From: Gemmatimonadota bacterium
GTDB lineage: Bacteria > Gemmatimonadota > Gemmatimonadetes > JACCXV01 > JAHWKZ01
Assembly: GCA_039591175.1 (NCBI GenBank)
Contig: JBDHED010000001.1
Location: 452-64,451, forward strand
DNA: 64,000 nt
Direction of reading: 5' to 3'
In this document: positions 1-33,055 of the stretch, one piece after another
Layout of the letters: each line of letters opens with the position of its first letter
Numbering within the stretch: the first letter of the stretch is position 1
Made by a program: the position numbers and the translations under genes
Notes under the pieces: model-generated
Seen by the model: only the letters and a program-made list of their open reading frames with translations
What the model was told of the DNA's origin: nothing
Databases searched by the model: none

Positions 1-716
1 ACGATCAGTCCTGGCCGGCGAGCACGCGCGATTCCGACCGCCTCGGCCACCGTATCGACCTTCGGATGACTAGCACTTCCCTTGGTTGAGAACGACAGCA
101 GCGCGACCCGCGGCTCCTCTCTGACCAGCGCTCGGTGCGTCGCCGCCGATGCGATCGCGATGTCGGCCAACTGGTCGGACGTTGGCTCAGGAACGACACC
201 GCAGTCACCAAAAGTAAATGCGCCCTGATCGCCGATCAGGAGGAACACCGATGAGATGGTGCTAATGCCACGCGCGGGTCCGATAACGCGAATCGCGGCT
301 CGGACCGTCTCCGCGGTCGTCGATAGGTTCCCGGCCACGCAGGCGTCGGCCTCGCCGCGCTGAACGAGGTAGGCGCCAAACACGAGCCGGTCCTCGAGTG
401 CGGCCCGTGCTTCGTCGGCGCTCAGCTCACGGTCGCGGCTCGCCTGTAGAGCGCGAAACCCGTCGGCATACGTATCGAGCCGCGGTGATTGCGCTGGAGC
501 GATGATATCGACGCCGTCGAGGCTAACGCCGGCCTTCTCAGCGGCCTCGCGGATGGCGTAGCCGCCACCCAGCAGTGTCACGTCGGCGATGTTGAGCTCG
601 CTAATCGTCCGCGCGGCCTGCACCGCCCGCGGGTCCGCACCGTCGGCGAGCACGACACGATGATTGTCGGCCGCCGCCCGGCTTCTCAAGTCGGCGATCA
701 GCTGTGAAGGGTTCAC
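1..716 (-). CDS. pta: Phosphate acetyl/propanoyl-transferase (PTA_PTB family, EutD/Pta-like). 5' part only: the gene starts at a GTG at 716 and continues past the left window edge
   Basis: Hand reverse-translation of 716..1 gives (M)NPSQLIADLRSRAAADNHRVVLADGADPRAVQAARTISELNIADVTLLGGG...VFLLIGDQGAFTFGDCGVVPEPTSDQLADIAIASAATHRALVREEPRVALLSFSTKGSASHP... This is collinear with the E. coli Pta C-terminal catalytic domain (RIVLPEGDEPRTVKAA ... [26 protein letters not shown] ... PRVAMLSYSTGTSG). The GTG start overlaps the TGA of the upstream ORF (GTGAAC). Not in the ORF track because it lacks a conventional in-window ATG-to-stop span. Confidence 0.8.
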   Translation of the reverse strand, partial: MNPSQLIADLRSRAAADNHRVVLADGADPRAVQAARTISELNIADVTLLGGGYAIREAAEKAGVSLDGVDIIAPAQSPRLDTYADGFRALQASRDRELSADEARAALEDRLVFGAYLVQRGEADACVAGNLSTTAETVRAAIRVIGPARGISTISSVFLLIGDQGAFTFGDCGVVPEPTSDQLADIAIASAATHRALVREEPRVALLSFSTKGSASHPKVDTVAEAVGIARARRPGLI

Positions 717-1036
717 CGACCCCAGCGGGTTAGGACTCGCTCCGCGATCTGACGTACTTGCGTCGCGTCCGCTTCTGGCACGAGACCGCGGACCCGTTCG
801 ACGACGCGCTCCACGTCGCTCGGATCGCAGGTAGGAATGTGATGACCGGCAGCCGGTGGGTTTGGGGTCTTGACCCTTTCGATCAACTCGATTCCATGGC
901 GATCGGCCTCTTCCCTGGCCAACGGTGTGATGATGGCGTTCTCGGGGACGACCAGTTGAAAGCTTCCGTCGCGGTGCACCGCGCGCACGTCATCAGCAGA
1001 GACGACGGGTCGGCTGCCGCGTCCGCGCATAGTCAC
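713..1036 (-). CDS. 107-aa conserved hypothetical protein, translationally coupled between the ParA-like gene and pta. Function unknown; candidate ParA partner or adaptor
   Basis: ORF MTMRGRGSRPVVSADDVRAVHRDGSFQLVVPENAIITPLAREEADRHGIELIERV... There is a 4-nt overlap (ATGA) with the parA-like stop and a GTGA overlap with the pta start. I could not assign it to EutN, EutQ, DRTGG, STAS or MinE families by eye. Confidence 0.55.
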   Translation of the reverse strand: MTMRGRGSRPVVSADDVRAVHRDGSFQLVVPENAIITPLAREEADRHGIELIERVKTPNPPAAGHHIPTCDPSDVERVVERVRGLVPEADATQVRQIAERVLTRWGR

Positions 1037-1848
1037 GACGCCTGTTTGACGACCGCCTCATCACGCCGGGCGGCCAATCGTTCAGCGATCTCGGCGGCCA
1101 CACTGTAGTAAGCCGCCGCTCCGGTGGAGTTGGAGTCGATCTCGTACAGCAACCGTCCCTCCCGGGCTGCCTCGGCGAGCGCGATGTTGATCGGGATCGG
1201 TTCCCGAAACAGAAGCTCCCCCCATTTGTCTTCCATCGTCGTGAGGCATTCGCGACCGACGCGGGTCCGGCGATCGTAAAGCGTCGCCAAGTAGCCCAAG
1301 AGATCCAGCCGCGGATTGAGTCGCCGTCGGACCTTGTCGACGAGGTCGAGGGTCCGGGGCACGGCATTGAGCGCGAAGGGGTGCGTTTGGACCGGGATCA
1401 CGACCGTGTCCGCCAGTCGCAACGCGTTGACGGTATAGAGAGACAGCGCCGGCGGGACATCGATGATCGCCATGCGGTACGGTAGTTCCGGCCCGGCCTC
1501 CCAGGCGTCAGCCAGGAGCTCCTCGCGGCCTGGGACGTTGGCCAGCTCGGATTCCATTTGGCCCAGGCTTTCGTGGGCTGGGACGCAGAACAACCGATCG
1601 TAGCGAGTCGGCACCGTCGCGCGCGCCAGACCGCCGACCGGGTCGATCAACACATCGGTGACAGTAGTTTCCAGCGTGTCGGGATCGACGCCCAGGTGAC
1701 GAGTCGCCGACGCCTGAGGATCGAGGTCGATGAGCACCGTCTCGATGCCGGTTTCGGCGAACGCGCCGGCGATGTGGACCGCCGACGTGGTCTTCCCTAC
1801 CCCGCCCTTCGCGTTGGCAAACACGAGCGCGTACGGTCGCCGCATCAC
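1033..1848 (-). CDS. ParA/MinD-family P-loop ATPase (Soj-like) with classical deviant Walker A including the signature lysine
   Basis: MMRRPYALVFANAKGGVGKTTSAVHIAGAFAETGIETVLIDLDPQASATRHLG... This contains the KGGVGKTT P-loop and the DLDPQ motif typical of ParA/Soj. No parB or parS was seen nearby. It is embedded between BMC shell genes and pta. Confidence 0.85.
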   Translation of the reverse strand: MMRRPYALVFANAKGGVGKTTSAVHIAGAFAETGIETVLIDLDPQASATRHLGVDPDTLETTVTDVLIDPVGGLARATVPTRYDRLFCVPAHESLGQMESELANVPGREELLADAWEAGPELPYRMAIIDVPPALSLYTVNALRLADTVVIPVQTHPFALNAVPRTLDLVDKVRRRLNPRLDLLGYLATLYDRRTRVGRECLTTMEDKWGELLFREPIPINIALAEAAREGRLLYEIDSNSTGAAAYYSVAAEIAERLAARRDEAVVKQAS

Positions 1849-2456
1849 TCGCTAGCCGGGTAGTAGCGGCTCTCGACCTTTTCTATCGCACCCCGATCGA
1901 GCAACTGCTTGACTGGGCCGATCAGCCGGCGCCACTCCGTCCCAAGCGCCGTCCCGAGATCGGGCAGCGTTATCCCCTGCTCCCCGGCACGCCGTATCGC
2001 CGTCAGGCATCGCGCTTCGAGGTCGGTGACCGAGACCGGTTGGGTCGTAGGCTTTGCGGTGACCTCGGTTGACGAAGCTACGGTCGGTTTGGGCGACTCG
2101 GTCGGCTTCGGGGGTGCGGTGGGTTTCGGGCTCGCTTTGGGACGTTGTCCGATCGGGTAAGTGCCTATCGCCGGGCTCTCGGGCAAGACGTCGACGAGCT
2201 GGTCGGTGGCTTGATGCGGCCGCGGGATGACGTGCACGCTGACCAACTCACCGACCTTGGCTGCAGCTACTGCACCGGCGTCGGTGGCAGCCTTGACCGC
2301 CGCGACGTCGCCGCGGACGAGGATCGTCACCAATCCGGCCTGAGAGTACTCGCGCTTGACGAACTCGACCGGCGCCGCTTTTGACATCGCGTCGGTGGCT
2401 TCGGTGGCACCCACGAAACCGCGGGTCTCGATCAGGCCGAGGGCGTTACCGGCCAT
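1845..2456 (-). CDS. Bacterial microcompartment shell protein, BMC-H (Pfam BMC domain), with Pro/Thr-rich linker and a C-terminal ~60-aa winged-helix/HTH-like domain (EutK-like architecture)
   Basis: MAGNALGLIETRGFVGATEATDAMSKAAPVEFVKREYSQAGLVTILVRGDVAAVKAATDAGAVAAAKVGELVSVHVIPRPH is a canonical BMC-H fold signature. It is followed by PKASPKPTAPPKPTESPKPTV... and then SVTDLEARCLTAIRRAGEQGITLPDLGTALGTEWRRLIGPVKQLLDRGAIEKVESRYY. The start was chosen at the ATG that lies 2 nt after the BMC-T stop; the 5' extension in the ORF track was judged spurious. Confidence 0.85.
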   Translation of the reverse strand: MAGNALGLIETRGFVGATEATDAMSKAAPVEFVKREYSQAGLVTILVRGDVAAVKAATDAGAVAAAKVGELVSVHVIPRPHQATDQLVDVLPESPAIGTYPIGQRPKASPKPTAPPKPTESPKPTVASSTEVTAKPTTQPVSVTDLEARCLTAIRRAGEQGITLPDLGTALGTEWRRLIGPVKQLLDRGAIEKVESRYYPASE

Positions 2457-2458
2457 CG

Positions 2459-3115
2459 TCAGTACCTCACCGGGTCGGCGTACACTGACTTGACTGCTGT
2501 CTCGAAGGCTTCGCACGCCGCGCGGCAGTCGGCCTCGGTTCCAGTCACGAGTGCTCCGCCCATATTCGTCGGCGTCGGCGGCTCGATCCACTCCCCCACC
2601 TGCACGTCGGCCGTTTTGAGTGCCTGATCGAGCCCAAAGACGGCTTCCAACGGCGTCGCCTTGAGGTATCCGATCGCATCGCCACGTTCGATGCCGGCGC
2701 GCTCCGACAGATAACTCCCGGTCTGGGCGACCAGGTGAGCCAGGTACGGCCAGCGCCCCTCGTCGTCAGCCGACCGGTAGCTGACACGCGACTCGAGATG
2801 AGCCAGCGTAGCGTCCATCCCAGCTTCGACTTCCCCGAGCCGGTCTCCGGCCAATATCACGAGGGTCTCGGCAGCCGGTGACTCGATGTTCGAGCGCGAT
2901 GCGTCGCGGTAGAACGTGCGCGTGAATACGACGTCAACGGCGGCTTTCTTGGTCGCTTCGTCGACCGCTACGTACGTGGGGTCGTCTTGATCGACGGTGA
3001 GAAACCCGATCGACGCGTGCGATGGCCGCAAGCCCAGCGCGTCGACCAGCGCTGGTGCGACGTTCGGGATCGTCCGGACCGCTAGAACACGCGGTGCGAG
3101 GGTCGTGGTCACCAT
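2459..3115 (-). CDS. Bacterial microcompartment shell protein, BMC-T (tandem/permuted BMC domains), EutL/PduB-like
   Basis: Collinear with E. coli EutL. [29 protein letters not shown] aligns to [77 protein letters not shown] aligns to [48 protein letters not shown]. The C-terminal [13 protein letters not shown] aligns to GSQAACKAACNAF. Confidence 0.88.
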   Translation of the reverse strand: [218 protein letters not shown]

Positions 3116-3201
3116 ACAGTTGGATCCGGGTTCGGGGATTGCCGGGTAAAGCTCCGAGGAGTCTAGGAGCGCGGTCTGAGCGGGTCAAGCGGCGTGCGGG
3201 C

Positions 3202-3882
3202 TTAGAAGCGCATCTCCGCGCGGGTCCATTGAACCACTCCGCTTCCGCCGCGTTGGGCGGGCACGTACAGCATCTGCTTGGCGGCCGTCAGCGCAGCCGT
3301 GTCGAGCGCAGCGAAACGGCTCCCCTTCTCGATTCTGACCTCGCCCACTGAACCGTCGGCGAGCACTTCGACCAGCAGGTGGACCGCGGAACCGCGGACC
3401 CGTTTTTTGTCGAGGCTGTCCGGGATGCGCGGAACGACGAGGTGCAGCGGCCGTGGTGGGCTGACGATCCCGCCACCCCGGCCAGCAGCCGGGTCCGTCG
3501 TGCCTTCCCCTTCCGGCTCGCCGTCATCGCTGCCTTCGCCTTCGCTGGGAGCGGCCTCGGGCTCGGCCACCGTTTCCTCGATCGGAACCTCGGCGATCGC
3601 TACCTCGACGACTTCTTCAACCGGTTCGGGCTCGGGCTGCGTCTCGGCGACTTCCTCGGATGGTGGTTGAAGCGCGACCACCTCCAACTCGCTCCCGGGC
3701 CCACCCGGGATCACGAACACGTTTGGTGACGGAATCAGTGATTCGTGGATTCGATCGGCGATCACGCGTGGCAGGGCGAGCAGGATAATCGCGTGCAATC
3801 CGATTGCGACCAGCAGGCTCCAGCGCCGGATGCGGTCGTACGAATCGCGCCACACCGTGTTCTTGGTTGAGAGGACTCGCAT
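3202..3882 (-). CDS. TonB-like energy transducer: N-terminal membrane anchor, Pro/Glu-rich periplasmic linker, C-terminal TonB_C domain
   Basis: N-terminal TM LLVAIGLHAIILLAL, a PEPEPVEEVVEVAIAEVPIEE linker, and a C-terminal ...AVHLLVEVLADGSVGEVRIEKGSRFAALDTAALTAAKQMLYVPAQ typical of the TonB/TolA C-terminal fold. Confidence 0.7.
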   Translation of the reverse strand: MRVLSTKNTVWRDSYDRIRRWSLLVAIGLHAIILLALPRVIADRIHESLIPSPNVFVIPGGPGSELEVVALQPPSEEVAETQPEPEPVEEVVEVAIAEVPIEETVAEPEAAPSEGEGSDDGEPEGEGTTDPAAGRGGGIVSPPRPLHLVVPRIPDSLDKKRVRGSAVHLLVEVLADGSVGEVRIEKGSRFAALDTAALTAAKQMLYVPAQRGGSGVVQWTRAEMRF

Positions 3883-3912
3883 TATGAGAAAACTCCTGGC
3901 GGGTGCGCCGGG

Positions 3913-6393
3913 TTAGACGACCAGGCTCACCAGTTTGTTCGGGACCACGATCACCTTCCGAACCTGTTGACCGTCGAGGAGCTCTGGGATCCGACCATGT
4001 GCGAGCGCCCGGGCCTCGACCTCCTGGTCGGGCAAGTCGCGTGGGACGCTCATCTCCTCGCGCACCTTCCCATTGATCTGAATCACGACCGTGACCTCCT
4101 CGGTGCGCAGGATCTCGGGGTCGTAGTCGGGCCATCCAGCGTCGATCAGCGGTGGCTGGTGACCGGTCATGACCCACAGCTCCTCGCCGAGGTGGGGCGC
4201 GATGGGTGCCAGGAGTCGAATCACCGTCTCGATCGCCGTGCGCATCAGCGACGGATCCTCTGGTTCGCCGGGTTCTTCGACCGGTGCGTACTGGTAACAC
4301 TCGTTGACGAGCTCCATGATCCGTGCGATGGCGGTGTTGAACTGCCAGCTGGCGAGATCTTGGGTCGCTCCCTTCACCGATCGGTGCAGAACGAGGCGCA
4401 GCGATCGCGCCGCGTTCGAGTCGGTGGTTTCGTGTTCGCCGCCAGCGTCCTCATCCCACAGACCCCGATGCCGATCGACCAGTCGCCACACCCGCTGTAG
4501 CCAAGCGGCGACCGCCTTGATCCCCGCGTCTTTCCAATCGCCACCCTCGGTGAACGCAAAACCGAACATCAGGTAGGTACGGAAGGCATCGGCGCCGTAC
4601 TCCTCGATGTAGTCGTCCGGGCTGATCACGTTGTCCCGGGACTTGGACATCTTGGTCCCGCGATTGGTGATCGTGCCCTGATGAACGAGCCGTTGAAACG
4701 GCTCGCTTATGCCGAGGTGCCCCAGGTCCCGCATCGCCTTGACCATGAATCGGGCGTACAACAGGTGCAGGACGGCGTGCTCGATCCCGCCCGAGTACTG
4801 GTAAATCGGGCACCATCGATCGACCAGCTCTCGGTTCCATGGTCGCTCGTCGTCATCGGGTGACAGATAGCGCAGGAAGTACCACGCAGAGTCGACGAAT
4901 GTGTCCATCGTGTCGGGGTCGCGCCGCGCGTCAGAGCCACAGCTCGGGCAGGCCACGTTCATGAACGACTCCGAACGCTCGAGCGGGCTCTTGCCCGCGC
5001 CTAATGAGAAGTCGACGTCGTATGGCAGCTCAACCGGCAGGTCGTCGACCGCCACAGGCACTTCTCCACACGCGGAGCAATGCACGATCGGGATCGGCGC
5101 TCCCCAGTAGCGTTGCCTCGATATGAGCCAATCGCGGAGGCGGTAGTGGACGGTCGCCTTCCCGTCTCCCTTGGCGACCAAGTCGGCCGTAACCTGTTCG
5201 AGCATCTCCTCGGATCGCATGCCCGTGTACGGACCCGATGCGATGACTCGACCATGACCGGTATAGGCCTCATCGCGCTCGATGTCGGCTGACTCTGGTT
5301 CGATCACCCATACAACCGGAAGATCCATCGCCCGGACGAAATCGAAGTCACGCTCGTCGTGAGCCGGGACACCCTGGATCGCCCCGGTTCCGTACCCAGC
5401 GAGCACAAAATCCGCAACCCAGATCGGCACCTGCTCGTTCGTCAATGGATGGATAGCGTAGGCACCGGTGAACTCGCCGGTTTTCTCGGCCTCGGTCGAT
5501 GTGCGCTCGATCTCTGAGAGGCGACGGGCCCGATCGCGGTAAACGCCGACTTTGGCTCGATGCGCGTCGGTCACGATGTCATCGAGCACGTCGTGTTCTG
5601 GCGCCAACGCGAGGAACGTGACGCCGTAGAGCGTGTCCGGGCGCGTCGTAAACGTCTTGATCGTCGCCTCTCGATCGGCTATCTGCCAATCGATCTCGAC
5701 CCCGGTGGACCGGCCGATCCAGTTGCGTTGGAGCGTCTTTGTTCTCTCCGGCCAATCGATTTCGTCGAGTCCGTCCAGCAGCTCATCGGCGTAGTTCGTG
5801 ATCTTGAAGAACCATTGGGTGAGATCCCGTTTCTCGACGTCAGAGCCACAACGTTCACAGACGTTGCCTTCGACGACTTGCTCGTTGGCGAGCACGGTCT
5901 GGTCGGTCGGGCACCACCAGACGGGTGCCGCCTTGCGGTGAGCCAGACCGGCCCGATAAAGCTCGAGAAACAGCCACTGAGTCCACTTGTAGTACTCGGG
6001 CTCGCTCGTGTTTAGCGTGCGCTCCCAATCCCACATCGCGCCCATCGTCTTGAGTTGCTCGATCATGGTGGCGACGTTGCGATCAGTGGAATCTCTGGGG
6101 TGGATTCCAGTCCGCACGGCGTAGTTCTCGGCCGGCAGACCAAAAGCATCGAACCCAAAAGGCTCGAAAACCGATCGGCCACACATGCGCTGAAACCGGG
6201 CCCAAGTGTCGGCCGGCCCGTAGTGGTACCAGTGACCGACGTGGAGCCGGTCGCCGGACGGGTAGGCGAACATGACCAGCGCGTAGCAGGGGTCCGCGGC
6301 GGCCTCGAGGTCGGCCCGGAACAGATCCTTCGCCTCCCACTCGGTGCGCCACTTGGGCTCGATCACGTGGGGGTCGTAACGATGCTCAGCCAT
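3913..6393 (-). CDS. leuS: Leucyl-tRNA synthetase
   Basis: The 847-aa ORF has class I aaRS motifs and LeuRS-collinear sequence (MAEHRYDPHVIEPKWRTEWEAKDLF..., HVGHWYHYGPADTWARF, KMSKSRDNVISPDDY). The start was taken at MAEHRY. Confidence 0.95.
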   Translation of the reverse strand: MAEHRYDPHVIEPKWRTEWEAKDLFRADLEAAADPCYALVMFAYPSGDRLHVGHWYHYGPADTWARFQRMCGRSVFEPFGFDAFGLPAENYAVRTGIHPRDSTDRNVATMIEQLKTMGAMWDWERTLNTSEPEYYKWTQWLFLELYRAGLAHRKAAPVWWCPTDQTVLANEQVVEGNVCERCGSDVEKRDLTQWFFKITNYADELLDGLDEIDWPERTKTLQRNWIGRSTGVEIDWQIADREATIKTFTTRPDTLYGVTFLALAPEHDVLDDIVTDAHRAKVGVYRDRARRLSEIERTSTEAEKTGEFTGAYAIHPLTNEQVPIWVADFVLAGYGTGAIQGVPAHDERDFDFVRAMDLPVVWVIEPESADIERDEAYTGHGRVIASGPYTGMRSEEMLEQVTADLVAKGDGKATVHYRLRDWLISRQRYWGAPIPIVHCSACGEVPVAVDDLPVELPYDVDFSLGAGKSPLERSESFMNVACPSCGSDARRDPDTMDTFVDSAWYFLRYLSPDDDERPWNRELVDRWCPIYQYSGGIEHAVLHLLYARFMVKAMRDLGHLGISEPFQRLVHQGTITNRGTKMSKSRDNVISPDDYIEEYGADAFRTYLMFGFAFTEGGDWKDAGIKAVAAWLQRVWRLVDRHRGLWDEDAGGEHETTDSNAARSLRLVLHRSVKGATQDLASWQFNTAIARIMELVNECYQYAPVEEPGEPEDPSLMRTAIETVIRLLAPIAPHLGEELWVMTGHQPPLIDAGWPDYDPEILRTEEVTVVIQINGKVREEMSVPRDLPDQEVEARALAHGRIPELLDGQQVRKVIVVPNKLVSLVV

Positions 6394-6534
6394 GGTCGCT
6401 TTTGTGGGGGTAAAAACGGAGAGCGGCGGGAACCCGCTCCCGCCGCCGGTGGTCACGCATCAGACAGGTGCAAAGTACTGTCGCCGTCGTGCTCGATCAA
6501 CCGATGGAGCCAGCGTTTTGTGCGTTGTGGCTCC

Positions 6535-7368
6535 CTAGATCTCGTCCAAAACGCCAGAGTACACGACACGCGCGTGGCCGGTGAGATGCGGGGCGAACGG
6601 TGTCGTGCCACCCTCCCCGCCAGCCGCGTTGAAATCGACTTCGAGCGGGAACCCGCCGCTGGTTTCGACTCGGATCGGAGGTTCTACGGATCCCCACAGG
6701 GATCCCAGTATGGCCGCCGCCACGGCGCCGGTTCCGCACGATAGTGTTTCTGCCTCGACTCCACGCTCGAAAGTCCGCATCCGTATGTGGTGTCGATCCA
6801 CGATCGTGATGAAATCGACGTTTGTGCCGGCGGGCTGCCATCGCGGGTCGAGCCTCAGCCGCCTCCCTTCCCCGCGGATGTCATGGGCGCCGACATCCGC
6901 CACCGTGGCCACGACGTGTGGTGTCGAGGTGTCGACAAAGCCAACGTGCGTATAGGTGGAGCCCTCCAGGTCCGGGTAATCGGTGACGAGCCCGGTCGGC
7001 TCCGGAAGCCGTAACCGTACGGTCGGCTTGGCGGGATCGTCGACACGCGCCTCCAGGGTCCCGCTCTCGGTCGCTACGTGGACCACTGGTTGGCTGGCGA
7101 CACCAATCATCCGCGCGTAACGGGCGACACACATGGCCCCATTCCCACACATCGGGGCCACGCTGCCATCCGCGTTGTAGTACACCATCCTCAGGTCGGC
7201 CCCGGGATCCTCCTCCAGCAAGAGCACCGCGTCCGCGCCGACACCCAGGCCTCGTCGACACAAACGGACGACCGGCTCGCCACCATCCGGAAACCACCGC
7301 GAACGGTTATCGAATACGACGAAATCGTTCCCGCCGCCTGACATCTTCAGGAACGAGCGTGATTTCAC
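6535..7368 (-). CDS. dapF: Diaminopimelate epimerase
   Basis: FLKMSGGGNDFVVFDN and ...MCGNGAMCVARY show the two catalytic Cys regions of DapF. Confidence 0.9.
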   Translation of the reverse strand: MKSRSFLKMSGGGNDFVVFDNRSRWFPDGGEPVVRLCRRGLGVGADAVLLLEEDPGADLRMVYYNADGSVAPMCGNGAMCVARYARMIGVASQPVVHVATESGTLEARVDDPAKPTVRLRLPEPTGLVTDYPDLEGSTYTHVGFVDTSTPHVVATVADVGAHDIRGEGRRLRLDPRWQPAGTNVDFITIVDRHHIRMRTFERGVEAETLSCGTGAVAAAILGSLWGSVEPPIRVETSGGFPLEVDFNAAGGEGGTTPFAPHLTGHARVVYSGVLDEI

Positions 7369-8090
7369 GACCGATCAAGCGATTGCGTGATACGCCACAA
7401 TCGCATCCGCCACACCATCCAAATCGCTTCCCAGACGATCGAGCGGTTCATCTTGCTGCTACCGACGTTACGATCGACAAATACGATCGGGATCTCAACC
7501 AGTCGAAAGCCGGCCCGATCCGCGCGAAACACGGTTTCGATCTGGAACGCATAGCCGGTGGAGTGGATGCGGTCGAGGTCGATCGTTTCGAGGACCTTGC
7601 GTCGGTAACACTTGAACCCGCTGGTCAGATCGTTGAGCGGCAACCCGGTCACCGTTCGAGCGTAGGCATTGGCCAGCCAGGACAACAACAGCCGCCCCAT
7701 CGGCCAGTTGACCACGGTTACGCCGCGGGTATAGCGCGAGCCGATAACAACATCGAAGTCGTCGGCTAACTCCAGAAACTCCGGCAGATGACGCGGATCG
7801 TGCGAGAAGTCGGCGTCCATCTCGAACACCAGCTGGTAGTTGTGCTCGAGGGCGAAGCGAAAACCGTCGATGTACGCCGTGCCCAGACCAAGCTTGGCTG
7901 GGCGGTGGATGACGTGGACCCGCTCTTCATCGTTCGCCAGTGCGTCGGCGATCTCTCCGGTACCATCGGGAGAAGCGTCGTCGATGACGAGAACTTCCAG
8001 GCGCTCGCTCTGGGCTAAGATCTCTTGCACGAGCGGTTGCAGGTTCTTCTGCTCGTCGTAGGTAGGGACGATGATGAGGGTGTCACGCAT
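7365..8090 (-). CDS. GT2 glycosyltransferase, polyprenol-monophosphomannose (dolichol-phosphate mannose) synthase-like, soluble form
   Basis: IIVPTYDEQKNLQPLVQEI...VLVIDDASPDGTGEIADALA...FEMDADFSHDP... shows the DXD of GT-A fold and DPM1/Ppm1-like conservation. There are no C-terminal TM helices. Confidence 0.8.
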   Translation of the reverse strand: MRDTLIIVPTYDEQKNLQPLVQEILAQSERLEVLVIDDASPDGTGEIADALANDEERVHVIHRPAKLGLGTAYIDGFRFALEHNYQLVFEMDADFSHDPRHLPEFLELADDFDVVIGSRYTRGVTVVNWPMGRLLLSWLANAYARTVTGLPLNDLTSGFKCYRRKVLETIDLDRIHSTGYAFQIETVFRADRAGFRLVEIPIVFVDRNVGSSKMNRSIVWEAIWMVWRMRLWRITQSLDRS

Positions 8091-26339: not shown

Positions 26340-28010
26340 TCAGGGACGACCGGCGGCGGGGTCTCTGTACGTGCCCGCGATGTCGCGGAACACGCCGGCG
26401 ATTTCACCGACAGTGGCGCCGGCGGTGCACGCGGCCCGGATACCAGGCATCACGTTTGCCTCCCCGTTTGCCATCGACGTCAGTGCATCCAGTGCATGTT
26501 CCACGTGCGTCGAATCCCGATTCGTCCGCCATTCTCCAAGTCGGTCAGCCTGACGCTTTGCGAGGTCCTCGGTATCAACTGTTCGGATATCCGATGGTGC
26601 CTCATCCGTCTCGGCCCAACGGTTGACGCCGACCACCACCTCTTCACCGATCTCGACTCGCTGTTGGTGCTGGTATGCCTCGCGTTCTATCTCGCTGTGA
26701 AAGAACCCGACCTCGATCGCCGCGACAGAGCCGCCGATGTCCTCGATTTGATCCAAGTACGTCCGCGCTCGCTCTTCGAGGTCGCCCGTCAACCGTTCGA
26801 CATAGAACGAGCCGCCGAGCGGATCGGCGGTATCGGCGACGCCGCTTTCATGGGCCAAAATCTGCTGTGTCCTCAGCGCCAGCGCTGCCGATCGTTCCGA
26901 TGGCAAGGCCAACGCTTCGTCGTAGCTGTTCGTGTGGAGGCTCTGGGTCCCGCCGAGCACCGCTGCCAGCGCCTGCAAGGTAACGCGGACGACGTTGTTC
27001 AGCGGTTGTTGGGCGGTCAGCGTTGCACCGTCGGTTTGGGTGTGAAACCGGAGTCTGGCGGCCGAAGGGTCGGTAGCTCCAAAGCGGTTCTCTACCAGGT
27101 CGGCCCAGATCCGGCGCGCGGCTCGAAACTTCGCGACCTCCTCGAAGAGATTGTTGTGAACGCCAAAGAAGAATGACAGCCGGCCTATAAAAGTGTCGAC
27201 GTCTATCCCCGCTTGGCGGGCCGCTTCGACGTAGCAAATCGCGTTGGCGAACGTGAAAGCGATCTCTTGGGCCGCATTGGCGCCGGCCTCACGGATGTGA
27301 TAGCCGGAGATCGAGATCGGGTTCCAACGCGGCGTCTCCTGTGCGCACCAGGCGAAAGAATCGACGATCAAGCGCAGACTGAACTCTGGAGGATAGATAT
27401 ACGTTCCGCGAGCGATGTACTCCTTCAGAATGTCGTTTTGAACCGTTCCCCGCAGCGCGCCGAGCTTCGCTCCCTGCTCTTCAGCGACGAGGGTGTACAG
27501 CGCCAAGAGCGTATTCGCTGTGGCGTTGATCGTCATCGACGTCGATACGTCGGTGAGTGGAATGCCGGTCAGCAGTCGTCGCATGTCATCCAGCGTATCG
27601 ATCGCCACGCCGACACGACCGACCTCACCCACAGCGCGTGGATCGTCCGAGTCCATACCCATTTGAGTTGGGAGATCAAACGCCGTGGAGAGGCCCGTCT
27701 GCCCGCGATCGAGCAAGAACCTGAACCGCGCATTGGTCTCAGTCGCGGTTCCGAAGCCGGCGTACTGGCGCATCGTCCACAACCGACCCCGGTACATGTT
27801 GGGGTAGATGCCCCGGGTGTATGGTGGTTCGCCGGGGTAGCCGGGGACCGAATCCCTATCGGAAGTCGACTCGGTCGTATAGCAAGGTTCGATGGGATGC
27901 CCGCTGGTGGTGTGGAACCCCGGTTTGCGTTCCGGGTGGTTCTTCAGGTGGGGCTCGAGGGTTTCCCGCTGCCACCGGTCACGGTCGCTTTTTCCGGTAG
28001 GAGATGTCAT
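26340..28010 (-). CDS. Methylmalonyl-CoA mutase family, large (catalytic TIM-barrel) subunit without fused B12-binding domain
   Basis: ...[59 protein letters not shown]... is the canonical MCM substrate-binding barrel. The 556-aa length means the C-terminal cobalamin domain is not fused. Confidence 0.88.
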
Positions 28011-28549
28011 TCTGGTTCGCCCGCTGGCTCGATGAAACAGATGAGGGATCCCTGCTCGATAGGCTGTCCGGCTCGTACGCTGAGATCGCGGACGATTCCA
28101 TCGGTTGGTGCGGTGATCTCGTTCTCCATCTTCATCGCCTCGATAATCGCCAGCCCATCACCGGCGCGAACGTTGTGTCCGTCCTCAACCTCGACCAAGA
28201 GCACCAACCCCGGCATGGGGGCACGAATCTCCTGGGTCGTGTGAGACACCAGGGGCGCCAACGACCTGAGCCTGTGGCGCGCCTCGCTGACCACTGTGAA
28301 TCCATGTGGAGCGCCGTCCAAGACCAGGGCACCTTTGTCCCCCCCGCCCGGTCGCCATTCCACGCGCCGCGGCCGACCCTGGACCCACGCTTGAGCATCG
28401 TCGTGTCCGGCCGAAACGCAAAAAGTCCACGCCTCATCACCGTGCTCGACCTGGATCTCGCAACCGTCGTGGGTCTCCAGCAGCGTGACTCGATACGATG
28501 TTTCAGCCCCGTCGCGGGTTACGATATAGTGCTTCTGTGCGCTCATCGC
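28007..28549 (-). CDS. Biotin carboxyl carrier protein (biotin/lipoyl attachment domain) of acyl-CoA carboxylase
   Basis: C-terminal ...[45 protein letters not shown] with the AMKM biotinylation motif. Confidence 0.8.
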
Positions 28550-29910
28550 TTTGGCCGCGATAGCACGGCCACGGTTTCGACGTGCGCGGTTTGGGGAAAG
28601 AGATCGAAGGCGCGCAGAGATTCGAGTTGCCAACCCGTCCCCAGCCTGCGCACGTCACGAGCGAGTGTGGTCGGATCGCATGCCACGTAAACGAGCCGCT
28701 TGGCCGACGACTCCGAGATTCCCGCCAGAACCCGCTTTGGACAACCGCCTCGCGGCGGGTTTAGGACAACGATCTCCGGCCGAGGTCGAGCCCATCTCAC
28801 CCGATCGGCGGGCAGCTCCAAGACGTGGACCGATCCGGTGGTGACGTTCGCGTGCGCATTGGCCCGTAAGTCGGAAGCAGTCCCGGGATTGGCCTCGATC
28901 GCGGTGACGACGGCTCCCGCCGTCGCCAGCTCGCATGTGACGACCCCGATCCCGGCGTAAGCGTCGATGATACGGACCCCGGACCCCGGCTCCGCGGCCT
29001 CGACCACCGCGTCATACAATCTCTCGGCACCGCTGAGGTTGGCCTGGACGAAGCTGTCGAAGCCGCACCTGAGGTTGAGTTCGCGGTACTGGAAGCGGCT
29101 CGTCAATCGTGGGGCATCGCTCGCAAGCGTAAGGCTCGATTCGGGAGACCACCCTCCCCACGTGGTCTCGATGTCAGTCTTGTCCTCCAGCTCGCGAGCC
29201 AGGTGGCGCGCGAGATCAACGGGATCGGCAAATATCGCGGCGTGGATCGGACCTGGAGGCAGGAGCCGGAGCGCCAATCGACCCGCTGTGGCTCCTGCCT
29301 CCCGCGCGACCGGCGCGTCGCGGAGCGCCACCTCGAGCGCGGCGCGCAATGTCGATAGCTGGGAGTCGATGTGATCGTTCACGATCGGGCATCGATTGAT
29401 CGATACGATTCGATCGGGCTCGTCGGTATGGTGATATCCAAACTCGAGCTTGTCGTCCGCCCAGCGCCAAGAGATCACCGCGCGCTCCCGGTACTGCCAC
29501 TCGCTGGAAGCTGGTTCGCACGCTAAGCGGCCGAGTTCGCGCTGACCGCCAATCCGTTCCATGGCGTCGATCACCGCCTGGGTCTTGGCTTCGCGTTGGG
29601 CGACCGCGGTCAGGTGTTGAAGTTGACATCCCCCGCAGCGCCCAAACACCGGGCAGCGCGGCTCGACCCGGGCGACGGCCGGTTCGAGCACGGCGTCGAG
29701 TCTCGCCCTAGCGTAGCGCGAGTGCCGCTCGACAATAGTCGCTCGCACCTTCTCTCCGGGCGCGGTCCATGGCACGAAGACCACCAGCCCGTCGACGTGT
29801 GTCACGCCCTCACCCCCGTAGGCGAGCCGCTGAATGGTCGCCTCGACGGTGGTTTCGACGGCCGCTTGCTCGATCACCGGTACCAGACCCAGGAGCGACC
29901 CGCTCTCCAC
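28543..29910 (-). CDS. rlmD: 23S rRNA (uracil-C5)-methyltransferase RlmD/RumA family (TRAM domain + 4Fe-4S Cys cluster + MTase)
   Basis: TRAM-like N-terminus (GEGVTHVDGLVVFVPWTAPGEKV), a ...CPVFGRCGGCQLQHL Cys cluster, and C-terminal ...YAGIGVVTCELA...VLNPPRGG MTase motifs. Confidence 0.8.
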   Translation of the reverse strand: MESGSLLGLVPVIEQAAVETTVEATIQRLAYGGEGVTHVDGLVVFVPWTAPGEKVRATIVERHSRYARARLDAVLEPAVARVEPRCPVFGRCGGCQLQHLTAVAQREAKTQAVIDAMERIGGQRELGRLACEPASSEWQYRERAVISWRWADDKLEFGYHHTDEPDRIVSINRCPIVNDHIDSQLSTLRAALEVALRDAPVAREAGATAGRLALRLLPPGPIHAAIFADPVDLARHLARELEDKTDIETTWGGWSPESSLTLASDAPRLTSRFQYRELNLRCGFDSFVQANLSGAERLYDAVVEAAEPGSGVRIIDAYAGIGVVTCELATAGAVVTAIEANPGTASDLRANAHANVTTGSVHVLELPADRVRWARPRPEIVVLNPPRGGCPKRVLAGISESSAKRLVYVACDPTTLARDVRRLGTGWQLESLRAFDLFPQTAHVETVAVLSRPKR

Positions 29911-31412
29911 CTCGCCCGACCATCCGATGTGGCGGCGATGGCGGGGCTCGTCTTAGGCACCGCCGATAGCGCGTCCTCACGCCAGGCCGCAAGCGCAGCA
30001 GCGAGCGGCTCCTCCAACTTCGCCTCGTCGATCATCCGCGCGACGATCGCCTGTGCGCGGGTCTCCAGCGTACGCGTTGTGACCTGTCCCTCGATGACCA
30101 TCGGGTCGGCCAGCAACGCGCGCAGGAACCCGAGATTCGTCGTAAGCCCGCCGATCACCGTCGCGGCGAGCGCTCGATCGACCCGGTTCAAAGCTTCGGT
30201 TCGCGTTCGTCCCCAACCGATGCACTTGGCGAGCAACGGGTCATAATGCGGGGTGATCTCGACACCCGCATCGATGCCACTGTCGAATCGGACGCCTGGC
30301 CCACCGGGTTCGCGGTACGACGTTACCGTCCCGGTGGCGGGAAGGAATCCTCCCAGCGCGTCTTCGGCCGCGATCCGGCACTCGATGGCGTGACCCCGCA
30401 ACTCGACCTCGGCTTGACTCAGCGGCAGCTCGCCTCCGGCCGCGATCTCGAGTTGAAGGCCCACCAGATCGACTCCGGTCACCATCTCGGTTACCGGGTG
30501 TTCGACTTGGATTCGGGTGTTCATCTCGAGGAAGTAGAACTCGCCGGTCGGTGCCATGAGGAACTCCACCGTACCGGCACCGACGTAGTCAACCGCTTGG
30601 GCCGCCGCGACGGCGACACGGCCCATCTGGTCGCGCCGCTCCTCGGATAGTCCGGGTGCCGGTGCCTCCTCGAGAACCTTTTGATGGCGGCGCTGCAACG
30701 AGCACTCCCGCTCGCCGAGATGAATCGTGTGTCCGGTCGTGTCTGCCAGTACCTGAATCTCGATGTGCCGGGCCTCGGGTAAATACTTTTCCATGTAGAC
30801 GTGGGCATCGCCGAAAGCGCTCGCAGCCTCACGTGAGGCGGCTGCCAGAGCGGTTCCGAGGTCGGCCTCCGTCTCTACGACCCGCATCCCTTTTCCACCT
30901 CCGCCGGCAGCTGCTTTTAGCAGCACGGGGTAGCCGATGCCGTTTGCCTCCACGCTAGCCGCCGACAAATCCTCGACTGGTGCCAGCGTGCCGGGAATCA
31001 CTGCTACGTCTGCTGCAGCCATCAATCGTCTGGCGGAGGTCTTCTCCCCCATGATCCGAATGCTTCTCGGCGGCGGGCCAACCCACGCCAGGCCGGCGGC
31101 CTCCACCGCTTCGGCGAAGCTCGCGTTCTCGGCCAAAAACCCATACCCGGGGTGCACCGCGTCGGCTTCGCTTTGATCGGCAGCATCCAGGATCCGCTCT
31201 GGCGACAGGTAGGAATCAGCGGCGATCGCAGGCCCGATCTCGATCGCTCGATCCGCCAGCCACACGTGGGGTGAGCGTCGATCGGCCTCGGAGAAAACCG
31301 CCACCGCCTCGAGTCCGGCCGTATGGCACGCCCGGATTACGCGCACCGCGATCTCACCGCGGTTGGCGATCAGCACTCGGCGCAAAGTCTTGGTTCTCGA
31401 TGCAGATCTCAT
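29874..31412 (-). CDS. accC: Biotin carboxylase subunit of acetyl/propionyl-CoA carboxylase
   Basis: VLIANRGEIAVRVIRAC...YPVLLKAAAGGGGKGMRVV...EMNTRIQVEHPVTE, the ATP-grasp biotin carboxylase. Confidence 0.92.
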   Translation of the reverse strand: MRSASRTKTLRRVLIANRGEIAVRVIRACHTAGLEAVAVFSEADRRSPHVWLADRAIEIGPAIAADSYLSPERILDAADQSEADAVHPGYGFLAENASFAEAVEAAGLAWVGPPPRSIRIMGEKTSARRLMAAADVAVIPGTLAPVEDLSAASVEANGIGYPVLLKAAAGGGGKGMRVVETEADLGTALAAASREAASAFGDAHVYMEKYLPEARHIEIQVLADTTGHTIHLGERECSLQRRHQKVLEEAPAPGLSEERRDQMGRVAVAAAQAVDYVGAGTVEFLMAPTGEFYFLEMNTRIQVEHPVTEMVTGVDLVGLQLEIAAGGELPLSQAEVELRGHAIECRIAAEDALGGFLPATGTVTSYREPGGPGVRFDSGIDAGVEITPHYDPLLAKCIGWGRTRTEALNRVDRALAATVIGGLTTNLGFLRALLADPMVIEGQVTTRTLETRAQAIVARMIDEAKLEEPLAAALAAWREDALSAVPKTSPAIAATSDGRARWRAGRSWVWYR

Positions 31413-31456
31413 ATCACACTTGATATAGCAAGCCTTAGTGATTGCTGCAACAAGAC

Positions 31457-33055
31457 TTACAGGGGGAGGTTGCCGTGCTTTCTAGTCGGGTTGGCGTCCC
31501 TTTTGTTGGCCATCGCGATGAGGCCGCTGACGAGCCTCGAGCGTGTCTCGACCGGATCGATGATGGCGTCCACGTAGCCTCGTTCGGCGGCGATGTATGG
31601 ATTGGCGAAACGCTCCCGAAACTCCTCGGTGCGACGGTCGATGACGGCTTCGGGGTCGTCTGCGGCTTGGATCTCTCTTTTCCACAGGATCTCAGCCGCA
31701 CCCTTGGGTCCCATGACGGCGATTTCAGCTGTTGGCCACGCCAGATTCAAGTCGCCACGAATGTGCTTCGACGACATGACGTCGTAGGCACCGCCGTACG
31801 CTTTTCTCAAGATCACCGTCAGCTTGGGTACGGTCGCTTCGCAGTACGCGTACAAGAGCTTGGCACCGTGCTTTATGATCCCGCCCCACTCTTGGCCGGT
31901 ACCGGGCAAAAAGCCGGGCACATCGACGAGCGTCACCAACGGGATGTTGAAAGCGTCACAGAACCGAACGAACCGCGCTCCTTTCAGGCTTGCGTCGATA
32001 TCGAGCACCCCGGCGAGCACGGCCGGCTGGTTGGCGACGATTCCGACCGAGCGCCCCGCGAGTCGGGCAAAGCCGACGACCAGGTTCAGCCCGTAGCCAG
32101 CCTGGACTTCGAGAAAGGAGCCTTGGTCGACGATCTTCTGGATGATTCCGTGGACGTCGTACGGTTTGTTCGGGTTGTCGGGGACCGCGTCAGCGAGCTC
32201 GGGCACAGGCCGATACCAGTCGTCGCCGGAATCGACAGTTGGGGGGTCCTCCTGATTGTTGGATGGCAGATATCCCACCAGGTCGCGGATCCCTCGCAGG
32301 CAAGCGACCTCGTCGTCAAAAGTAAAGTGACTGACACCGCTCTTGGCCGCGTGCACCGCAGCCCCGCCGAGCTCGTCAAACGACACTTCCTCGTGGGTGA
32401 CCGTCTTTACCACGTTTGGGCCGGTCACGAACATGTACGAGACGCCCTCGACCATACACACGAAATCAGTAATGGCCGGGGAGTACACAGCGCCACCGGC
32501 GCAGGGGCCCAGAATGGCGCTGATCTGTGGCACGACCCCGCTGGCCAATGTGTTGCGCAGAAAGATCTCGGCGTACCCACCGAGAGATGCCACGCCCTCC
32601 TGGATCCTGGCGCCCCCCGAATCGTTGAGTCCGATGATCGGAGCCCCCACCTTTAGCGCGAGATCCATCACTTTGCAGATCTTCTCGGCGTGGGCCTCCG
32701 ACAGCGAGCCGCCGAATACCGTAAAGTCCTGGCTAAACACATAGACCGTTCGGTCATTGATCGTGCCGTGGCCGGTGACAACGCCGTCGCCGGGGATTTT
32801 CTGGGACTCGAGGCCGAATTCCTCGGTGCGATGGGTTACGAGCATGTCGAGCTCGAAAAACGAGCCTTCGTCGAGCAGAACATCGAGCCGTTCACGGGCT
32901 GACAGCTTTCCCTTGGCATGCTGCGCCTCGAGGCGGTCCTGGCCACCGCCGAGCATGGCCTCCTGCTCACGGGCGCGCAGGTCTTCCAGTCGATCGCTCA
33001 AGATCTGCCTACCAATCGACGGCCGTAGCTTGGCCGCGTTCGATTTGGTGAACAA
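31457..33055 (-). CDS. pccB: Propionyl-CoA carboxylase beta chain / acyl-CoA carboxylase carboxyltransferase subunit
   Basis: ...[28 protein letters not shown]...[45 protein letters not shown]... is carboxyl-transferase-domain collinear. Confidence 0.9.

Follow-up and report, generated by a model that had tools for sequence, protein, structure and literature searches.

The window analysed here, a 64,000-nucleotide stretch of a Gemmatimonadota contig (JBDHED010000001.1, positions 452 to 64,451), opens with the first five genes of a seven-gene operon conserved in a Gemmatimonadota lineage, in which a ParA-family ATPase is encoded among the shell proteins and enzymes of a bacterial microcompartment (BMC). 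The best explanation of this locus, which we hold with slightly more than even confidence, is that it encodes a minimal EUT-like metabolosome positioned by a dedicated, Soj-derived ParA, with the tail of a EutK-like shell protein acting as the adaptor. A preliminary description of the same DNA had reported five tightly packed minus-strand genes at positions 1-3115, and all five are present there. It had also taken them for a metabolosome-type operon, which is borne out by the Eut homologies of all of the ParA's partners, and had proposed a module for microcompartment positioning. Positioning remains the most reasonable reading of the ParA, but the part of that proposal which assigned the role of its partner to a small open reading frame (ORF) of 107 aa does not stand.

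In the proposed mechanism, ParA-ATP dimers would bind the nucleoid and would space and segregate the microcompartments by a Brownian ratchet, as McdA does with carboxysomes. The adaptor on the cargo side would be the disordered linker and winged-helix tail of the EutK-like protein, such that a ParB- or McdB-like function would be built into the shell itself, while a stand-alone protein resembling EutQ's N-terminal part (EutQ-N) would tie the shell to the encapsulation peptides of the cargo. The EutK-like tail is preferred as the adaptor because its gene is coupled to parA in two phyla, because a partitioning defect is associated with Salmonella eutK and a ParB-like role was proposed by the authors of that work (PMC12487888), because the EutQ-N linker is expected to be luminal, and because EutQ-N genes occur without ParA. 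Taken by itself, this assignment of the adaptor is tentative, and somewhat short of an even chance.

A ParA gene fixed within a minimal EUT-like operon

The window's ParA has no verbatim database record, and the sequence beyond the window edge was judged from relatives. Genomic contexts were collected through ParA (L001-L025), through the small ORF (L027-L029) and through the winged-helix motif of the EutK-like protein (L037-L051), giving about 40 related contigs in total, part of which are redundant. The last of these sets derives from a metagenome scan with one peptide pattern, which recovered Gemmatimonadota-type loci only and is no gauge of how far the linkage of EutK and ParA has spread.

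The same gene order recurs in the approximately 40 contigs: leucyl-tRNA synthetase (LeuRS), a TonB_C-domain protein, BMC-T, BMC-H with a C-terminal extension, ParA, the small ORF, phosphotransacetylase (PTA), a second BMC-H of 91 aa, and aldehyde dehydrogenase (AldDH), with unrelated and variable genes downstream of the last. ParA identity across these contigs ranges from 68% to 96%. In the relatives, the junction between BMC-T and BMC-H measures -1 to +3 nt (+50 nt in one locus), that between BMC-H and ParA -4 to +5 nt, that between ParA and the small ORF -4 to +34 nt, and that between the small ORF and PTA -4 nt in every locus. Within the five genes of the window, a 2-nt gap is followed by three 4-nt overlaps of the GTGA type, and the start of parA overlaps the stop codon of the EutK-like gene. 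Conservation of ParA is on a par with that of the operon enzymes and places it among the best conserved of the operon genes; in locus L002, for instance, ParA is 68% identical, BMC-T 63% and the small ORF 48%. In the related contigs parA and the small ORF thus do occur together with the BMC genes, and the ParA is a fixed part of the operon.

Two further features of the related loci were observed. In most of them, across the clade, the TonB_C and LeuRS genes precede the BMC operon on the same strand; this constant flank implies that the operon occupies a fixed chromosomal position, which suggests vertical inheritance rather than recent transfer. In four loci, a gene of about 2.3 kb from the S9 prolyl-oligopeptidase family lies between PTA and the second BMC-H; the copy in L021 is split into two overlapping ORFs, perhaps by a frameshift.

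Comparison by BLASTP with the Eut proteins of E. coli K-12 (locus L026) yielded a counterpart for each of the other six operon products (Table 1), and the BMC-T scores 248 bits against the NCBIfam EutL model PRK15405, for which the cut-off is 198. The PTA orthologues are 337-341 aa long. At the N-terminus of AldDH, a conserved amphipathic helix, PLTExEIRxIVDRIT, is followed by a variable Pro/Ala-rich linker, and this helix has the sequence of a classical, EutE-like encapsulation peptide.

The preliminary description had placed the remaining core genes, including a BMC-P vertex protein and a signature enzyme, immediately to the left of the window. The last two operon genes, a EutM-like BMC-H and the EutE-like AldDH with its encapsulation peptide, do lie beyond that edge, as seen in the relatives only. 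However, neither a BMC-P nor a signature enzyme was found within about 6-10 kb in any relative locus, nor in the 64-kb window. Searches by tblastn returned no homologue of EutA, EutB, EutC, EutG or EutH in the 64-kb window and no match to EutC in the flanks of the related loci, while with EutN (BMC-P), at E below 1, the window gave a single noise match and loci L001-L025 gave nothing; these searches covered the window and the loci, and a BMC-P satellite could still lie elsewhere in the genome. Nor do the five genes form the tail end of a larger locus, as had been supposed, since the operon in the relatives ends two genes past PTA. The locus is best described as a EUT1-like core without the lyase, or a minimal EUT-like metabolosome.

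Properties of ParA, the EutK-like protein and the EutQ-N-like protein

The Walker A motif of the ParA is KGGVGKT, of the deviant type with the signature lysine. The protein belongs to a clade of about 76 clusters at identities of at least 62%, every named member of which is from Gemmatimonadota, and outside this clade there is a sharp drop to generic Soj-like proteins at 43% identity. Among solved structures in the PDB, the closest are Thermus Soj (3e-37) and Helicobacter Soj (2e-27), with Cyanothece McdA (6non) at only 4e-12. Residues were numbered by alignment to a B. subtilis Soj sequence that reproduces G12, K16, D40 and R189. The equivalents of Soj K11, G12, K16, D40, D125 and R189 are invariant in 23 ParA orthologues, and to judge from these motifs the protein keeps the signature lysine together with Walker A, A' and B. 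R189 is the residue that we take to be key for non-specific DNA binding by Soj. In the Soj motif PRNVRLSEAPS, both arginines (R215 and R218) are replaced in the ParA clade. In L001, L002 and L027-L029, the genes and Pfam domains listed include BMC and PTA genes on either side of parA but no ParB gene beside it. Identification of the protein as a MinD was considered and rejected, as its C-terminal tails are charged and variable in length and sequence, without a membrane helix, and the MinD models score far below their cut-offs. The signature lysine had initially been taken to distinguish this ParA from McdA, but it is also found in alpha-McdA and type-2 beta-McdA (PMC8359340).

An alignment of 23 orthologues of the EutK-like protein shows a BMC domain, a variable low-complexity linker, and a near-invariant C-terminal domain of about 60 aa. 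In the window's subclade the linker is rich in Pro, Thr and Lys, whereas in most others it is rich in Arg and has a net charge of +2 to +10. The C-terminal domain carries the motif EWRRLIxPVKxLLDxGxIEKVESRYYPAG and matches EutK 115-162 by BLASTP (E 2e-4, with the match itself at 118-161) and by hhalign (79% probability, E 1.7e-5), whereas the NCBIfam EutK model is matched over the BMC domain only and below its cut-off. A profile search with this domain gave short fragments only, which were used as the alignment for AlphaFold2 (AF2). The resulting model (pLDDT 86) has an H-H-H-beta-hairpin arrangement and is predicted to be a canonical winged helix, with Foldseek matches to MarR, CymR, CggR, Z-alpha and ScpB at TM scores of 0.7-0.8. 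In published shell structures, the termini of BMC-H proteins are located on the concave face and point to the cytosol; the EutK-like tail should therefore be displayed on the exterior of the compartment. The Eut BMCs of Salmonella need EutK for their partitioning and for distribution away from the pole, and a ParB-like role has been proposed for it (PMC12487888).

The 107-aa ORF has no Pfam match, whether to PF06249, to Cupin or to any other family. It does match the NCBIfam EutQ model PRK15457 through its residues 4-98 (4e-9), and the profile of its family aligns to EutQ 3-99 by hhalign (93% probability, E 2.9e-7), with a match that stops exactly where the cupin begins. The AF2 model (pLDDT 72) consists of an alpha/beta unit at residues 11-53, disorder at 54-70, and helices at 72-85 and 91-105, a topology that agrees with the H1/H2, flexible segment and H3/H4 architecture of EutQ 1-99. 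Foldseek of this model against the PDB gave no significant match, and because no structure of EutQ 1-99 exists, the homology rests on sequence and profile comparison. EutQ 1-99 of Salmonella is an experimentally defined shell-cargo linker, in which H1/H2 bind the shell and H3/H4 the encapsulation peptides (PMC12487888).

A candidate McdB is the other identity to be considered for the 107-aa protein, since in the window's subclade, and only there, its N-terminus is Arg-rich and a Trp lies three residues before its end. This was rejected, as the C-terminal Trp is not conserved (most orthologues end in RLGG), the protein is predicted to be mostly folded with disorder only at 54-70, and it is a homologue of EutQ 1-99. 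Stand-alone homologues without ParA were also encountered. A full-library profile search with the 107-aa protein returned 36 matches at E up to 1e-3, several of which are spurious repeat proteins (P0138, P0166 and P0169). In L030, a EutA-EutB-EutC-EutL cluster ends in a stand-alone EutQ-N-like gene (101 aa), and in L035 a PduS-PduT pair is followed by another (123 aa), in both cases with no ParA nearby. Several BMC types thus have a separate gene for the N-terminal linker of EutQ. Together, the match to EutQ 1-99, the EutQ-like AF2 architecture, the unconserved Trp and the existence of homologues without ParA make it most likely that the 107-aa protein is a shell-cargo linker (PMC12487888) rather than the McdB-like partner envisaged at the outset.

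The same combination is present in a second phylum. Stand-alone EutQ-N homologues (P0144 and P0145) occur in two Calditrichaceae loci, L032 and L033, in which the gene order is EutK-like BMC-H, ParA, EutQ-N-like, PTA, two BMC-H, AldDH, EutJ-like, PduS and PduT. The EutK-like proteins of these loci (185-188 aa) have a Lys-rich linker and a winged helix ending in EKVRQRYYPAS or EKVGTRYF, and their genes overlap parA by 1-4 nt. Compared with its counterpart from the window, the EutK-like protein is 37-41% identical, ParA 33-37% and the small protein 30-33%, and for AldDH the figure is 62-63%. The triad of EutK-like, ParA and EutQ-N-like genes would either predate the Gemmatimonadota or have been assembled twice. 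In both loci, a conserved protein of 307-308 aa without a Pfam match comes after PduT, and L032 has in addition a separate 120-aa cupin with a weak EutQ match on the opposite strand.

Positioning and the alternatives to it

Several observations weigh against a metabolosome positioned by ParA through a EutK-like adaptor. There is no experimental evidence for ParA-dependent positioning of any metabolosome, and in Salmonella the endogenous ParA, MinD and heterologous McdAB were without effect on Pdu BMCs (PMC12866334). Enterobacteria possess EutK without ParA. Within the collected loci, L048, a 2-kb soil metagenome contig, encodes the EutL-like and EutK-like proteins but has no ParA ORF in the next 1.1 kb; its winged-helix motif is GWQSLI in place of the otherwise invariant EWRRLI, and the contig may represent either a genuine variant without ParA or an assembly chimera. 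By pairwise comparison, the Calditrichaceae ParA is no nearer to the Gemmatimonadota ParA (37% identity) than to generic Soj (36.5%), and a specific shared ancestor of the two BMC ParAs does not follow from similarity. Loss of the R215 and R218 equivalents may have altered DNA binding, and the modelled winged helix could serve protein contacts rather than binding of DNA or ParA, as its fold matches include dimerisation domains. Finally, a mirror-tree comparison with ParA gave the winged helix a partial r of 0.67, against 0.51 for the small ORF and 0.38 for the BMC domain; on these distance matrices, and with no significance figure, the advantage of the winged helix over the small ORF is slight. 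In its broadest form, the proposal would be that EutK-type shell proteins are built-in ParB/McdB-like adaptors which recruit a dedicated, Soj-derived ParA, and that this is the first ParA-based segregation of a catabolic metabolosome; we consider that generalisation less likely than not.

The model of the preliminary description, in which ParA and the 107-aa ORF form a McdA/McdB-like pair with the small protein as the ParA adaptor, can draw on the proximity of the two genes, which overlap by 4 nt here and remain neighbours, at -4 to +34 nt, throughout the Gemmatimonadota loci as well as in Calditrichaceae. The flexible central linker of the AF2 model, the Arg-rich N-terminus and near-terminal Trp of the window's subclade, and the correlation of its distance matrix with that of ParA (partial r 0.51) are also in keeping with such a role. 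Yet the homology of the protein to EutQ 1-99, a demonstrated shell-cargo linker, spans its full length, and it is mostly folded by prediction whereas McdB is disordered; its McdB-like features are limited to one subclade, with most orthologues ending in RLGG; and stand-alone homologues are present in BMC loci without ParA. A linker that binds encapsulation peptides would, furthermore, be expected inside the shell, away from the nucleoid-bound ParA. This pairing is accordingly rather improbable. Somewhat less probable again is a role for ParA other than positioning, either in shell assembly or quality control or in Soj-like regulation together with the EutK-like winged helix. ParA/MinD ATPases are diverse in role, and Bacillus Soj regulates both DnaA and transcription, which favours this alternative, as do the resemblance of the winged-helix fold to the DNA-binding domains of transcription factors (Foldseek) and the loss of the R215/R218 equivalents, after which the nucleoid may no longer be the matrix for ParA. 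A ParA acting as a shell assembly factor is, on the other hand, without precedent, and the equivalent of Soj R189, a DNA-binding residue, is invariant in the orthologues. Moreover, the sole characterised BMC-linked ParA proteins, those of the McdA family, are positioning ATPases (PMC8359340).

There remains the notion that the ParA has nothing to do with the microcompartment, being either an ordinary partition ATPase of a chromosome or plasmid or the product of a chance insertion. Its closest solved relatives are indeed chromosomal Soj proteins. However, about 40 loci, and a second phylum besides, have parA at this position; its translation is coupled to that of both neighbours, no parB is close to it, and its product belongs to a separate clade (at least 62% identity within it, dropping to 43% against generic Soj). 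The rest of the window, in turn, is ordinary housekeeping chromosome (LeuRS, DapF, ribosomal protein S1, Era and PurL). The conservation data effectively refute this explanation, to which we assign only a very small probability. Positioning of a EUT-like metabolosome by its own ParA is thus retained as the best explanation of the locus.

Genomic setting and relation to known systems

The coordinates of all features are collected in Table 1. The 86 nt that separate the TonB_C gene from the first BMC gene contain a sigma-70-like site, by sequence a possible operon promoter; the consensus scan returned 2 sites against 0.5 expected. No Rfam element, a cobalamin riboswitch included, was detected in positions 1-8000. 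Directly upstream of the BMC operon lie the TonB_C-domain and LeuRS genes. About 23 kb from the operon, a minus-strand cluster (26340-33055) encodes methylmalonyl-CoA mutase, biotin carboxylase and carboxyltransferase, which make up a route from propionyl-CoA to succinyl-CoA. Its vicinity could hint at a C3 acyl-CoA product of the metabolosome, but may be coincidence.

Table 1. Features of the window and of related loci, with the E. coli K-12 Eut counterparts of the operon products.
Feature	Sequence	Coordinates	Strand	Length and domain evidence	Eut counterpart (BLASTP)
EutL-like BMC-T, operon gene 1	window	2459-3115	-	218 aa; PF00936	EutL, 45% identity, E 2e-61
EutK-like BMC-H with C-terminal extension	window	1845-2456	-	203 aa; PF00936 at 3.5e-24	EutK residues 3-161, 31% identity
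Soj-type ParA/MinD-family ATPase	window	1033-1848	-	271 aa; AAA_31 at 7e-38, CbiA at 3e-19	
Stand-alone EutQ-N-terminal-like protein	window	713-1036	-	107 aa; NCBIfam EutQ PRK15457	EutQ residues 2-98, 31% identity, 8e-8
EutD-like phosphotransacetylase, cut by window edge	window	1-716	-	N-terminal 238 aa; PF01515 at 6.5e-64	EutD, 43% identity (window fragment), 51% (full-length orthologue)
Second BMC-H, EutM-like	relatives				EutM, 78% identity
AldDH, EutE-like	relatives				EutE, 56% identity
Promoter-like site, TTGACC-17 nt-TAGACT	window	3160-3188	-	sigma-70-like; consensus scan	
TonB_C-domain protein	window	3202-3882	-		
LeuRS	window	3913-6456	-		
Methylmalonyl-CoA mutase	window	26340-28010	-		
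Biotin carboxylase	window	29874-31412	-		
Carboxyltransferase	window	31457-33055	-		
S9 peptidase insertion	L020	6062-8368			
S9 peptidase insertion	L021	12179-14470			
S9 peptidase insertion	L022	2816-5123			
S9 peptidase insertion	L024	3440-5760			
Calditrichaceae BMC locus	L032	6647-14502			
Calditrichaceae BMC locus	L033	6652-14155			
EutL-like and EutK-like genes, no ParA ORF	L048	354-2044			
EutA-EutB-EutC-EutL cluster with EutQ-N-like gene	L030	3538-8306			
PduS-PduT pair with EutQ-N-like gene	L035	144-2435			

The general idea of ParA in metabolosome loci is not new. ParA (PF01656) genes were listed in BMC loci by Axen 2014 (PMC4207490), and MacCready 2021 described McdA- and McdB-like genes within or beside four example non-carboxysome BMC operons (PMC8359340), cases that later reviews take up again, naming EUT and PDU operons (PMC8262871, PMC13052382). 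The preliminary description knew of no ParA-based equivalent for catabolic metabolosomes; such genes are already in print, although they were never tested. No paper was found on the operon of Gemmatimonadota or Calditrichaceae, or on linkage of EutK and ParA genes. What appears to be new is the coupling of a Soj-derived ParA to a EutK-like shell protein, together with the stand-alone EutQ-N linker and the minimal EUT-like core.

The positioning and inheritance of catabolic microcompartments are an acknowledged gap (PMC8262871, PMC12866334, PMC12487888). McdAB accounts for carboxysomes only, and EutK and PduK of Salmonella matter for partitioning with no motor known. The physical coupling of a EutK-like gene to a dedicated parA in two phyla leads to a testable hypothesis, that of a shell-fused adaptor acting with a ParA, and if it is true, a EutK-type adaptor would supply a mechanism for the need for EutK in Salmonella Eut partitioning. 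The seven-gene operon is a compact, synthesisable set, and would offer a small natural system in which to study the positioning of catabolic microcompartments; it may also be of use for spreading engineered synthetic microcompartments evenly in host cells. In addition, the stand-alone EutQ-N gene supports the modular role that has been proposed for the N-terminal linker of EutQ.

In its composition, the locus resembles EUT1 of E. coli and Salmonella, with homologues of EutL, EutK together with its winged helix, EutQ 1-99, EutD, EutM, and EutE with an N-terminal encapsulation peptide. Its EutD-like PTA is of the PF01515 type that is typical of EUT1, and the local gene orders L-K and Q-D-M-E mirror those of the eut operon. 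Unlike EUT1, however, the locus and the window lack EutBC, EutA, EutN, EutS, EutP, EutT, EutJ, EutG and EutH, the EutQ-like protein has no cupin domain, and parA lies directly upstream of the eutQ-like gene, in the place of eutP in E. coli. For Gemmatimonadetes, the catalogue of Sutter et al. 2021 gives the BMC types MUF2 and FRAG8. Both share with the locus the phylum, a dispersed organisation and a BMC-H with a C-terminal extension, and MUF2 also resembles it in having AldDH and PTA with no obvious signature enzyme. The locus nonetheless differs from both, and no catalogued type was matched: the published descriptions of MUF2 and FRAG8 give no ParA and no EutL-type BMC-T, the main MUF2 loci have BMC-P triplets and one or more BMC-T, and the AldDH encapsulation peptide of FRAG8 is C-terminal rather than N-terminal.

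With the Soj/ParA-Spo0J/ParB-parS system, the ParA shares its best similarity in sequence and structure databases, identical ATPase motifs and the R189 equivalent. It differs from that system in lacking a parB/parS context and the PRNVRLSEAPS arginines, in forming its own clade and in belonging to a BMC operon. The parallel to McdAB lies in the presence of a deviant-Walker-A ParA-family ATPase inside a BMC operon, with the signature lysine of alpha-McdA and type-2 beta-McdA, and in what is presumed to be the same job, to space a protein organelle along the nucleoid and see to its inheritance. Here, though, the cargo is a catabolic EUT-like metabolosome instead of a carboxysome, the ParA is far closer to Soj (3e-37) than to the solved McdA of Cyanothece (6non; 4e-12), and the locus encodes no disordered, McdB-like partner whose C-terminal Trp is invariant. 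While McdB is a separate protein, the candidate adaptor is the tail of a shell protein, which does have a disordered linker and ends in RYYPAG but is fused to the BMC domain. EutK and PduK of Salmonella are likewise BMC-H proteins with a C-terminal extension, which in EutK is a positively charged domain of the helix-turn-helix or winged-helix type. The difference is one of gene linkage: no ParA gene is linked to enterobacterial eutK, whereas the eutK-like genes of this locus and of Calditrichaceae are in translational coupling with a dedicated parA.

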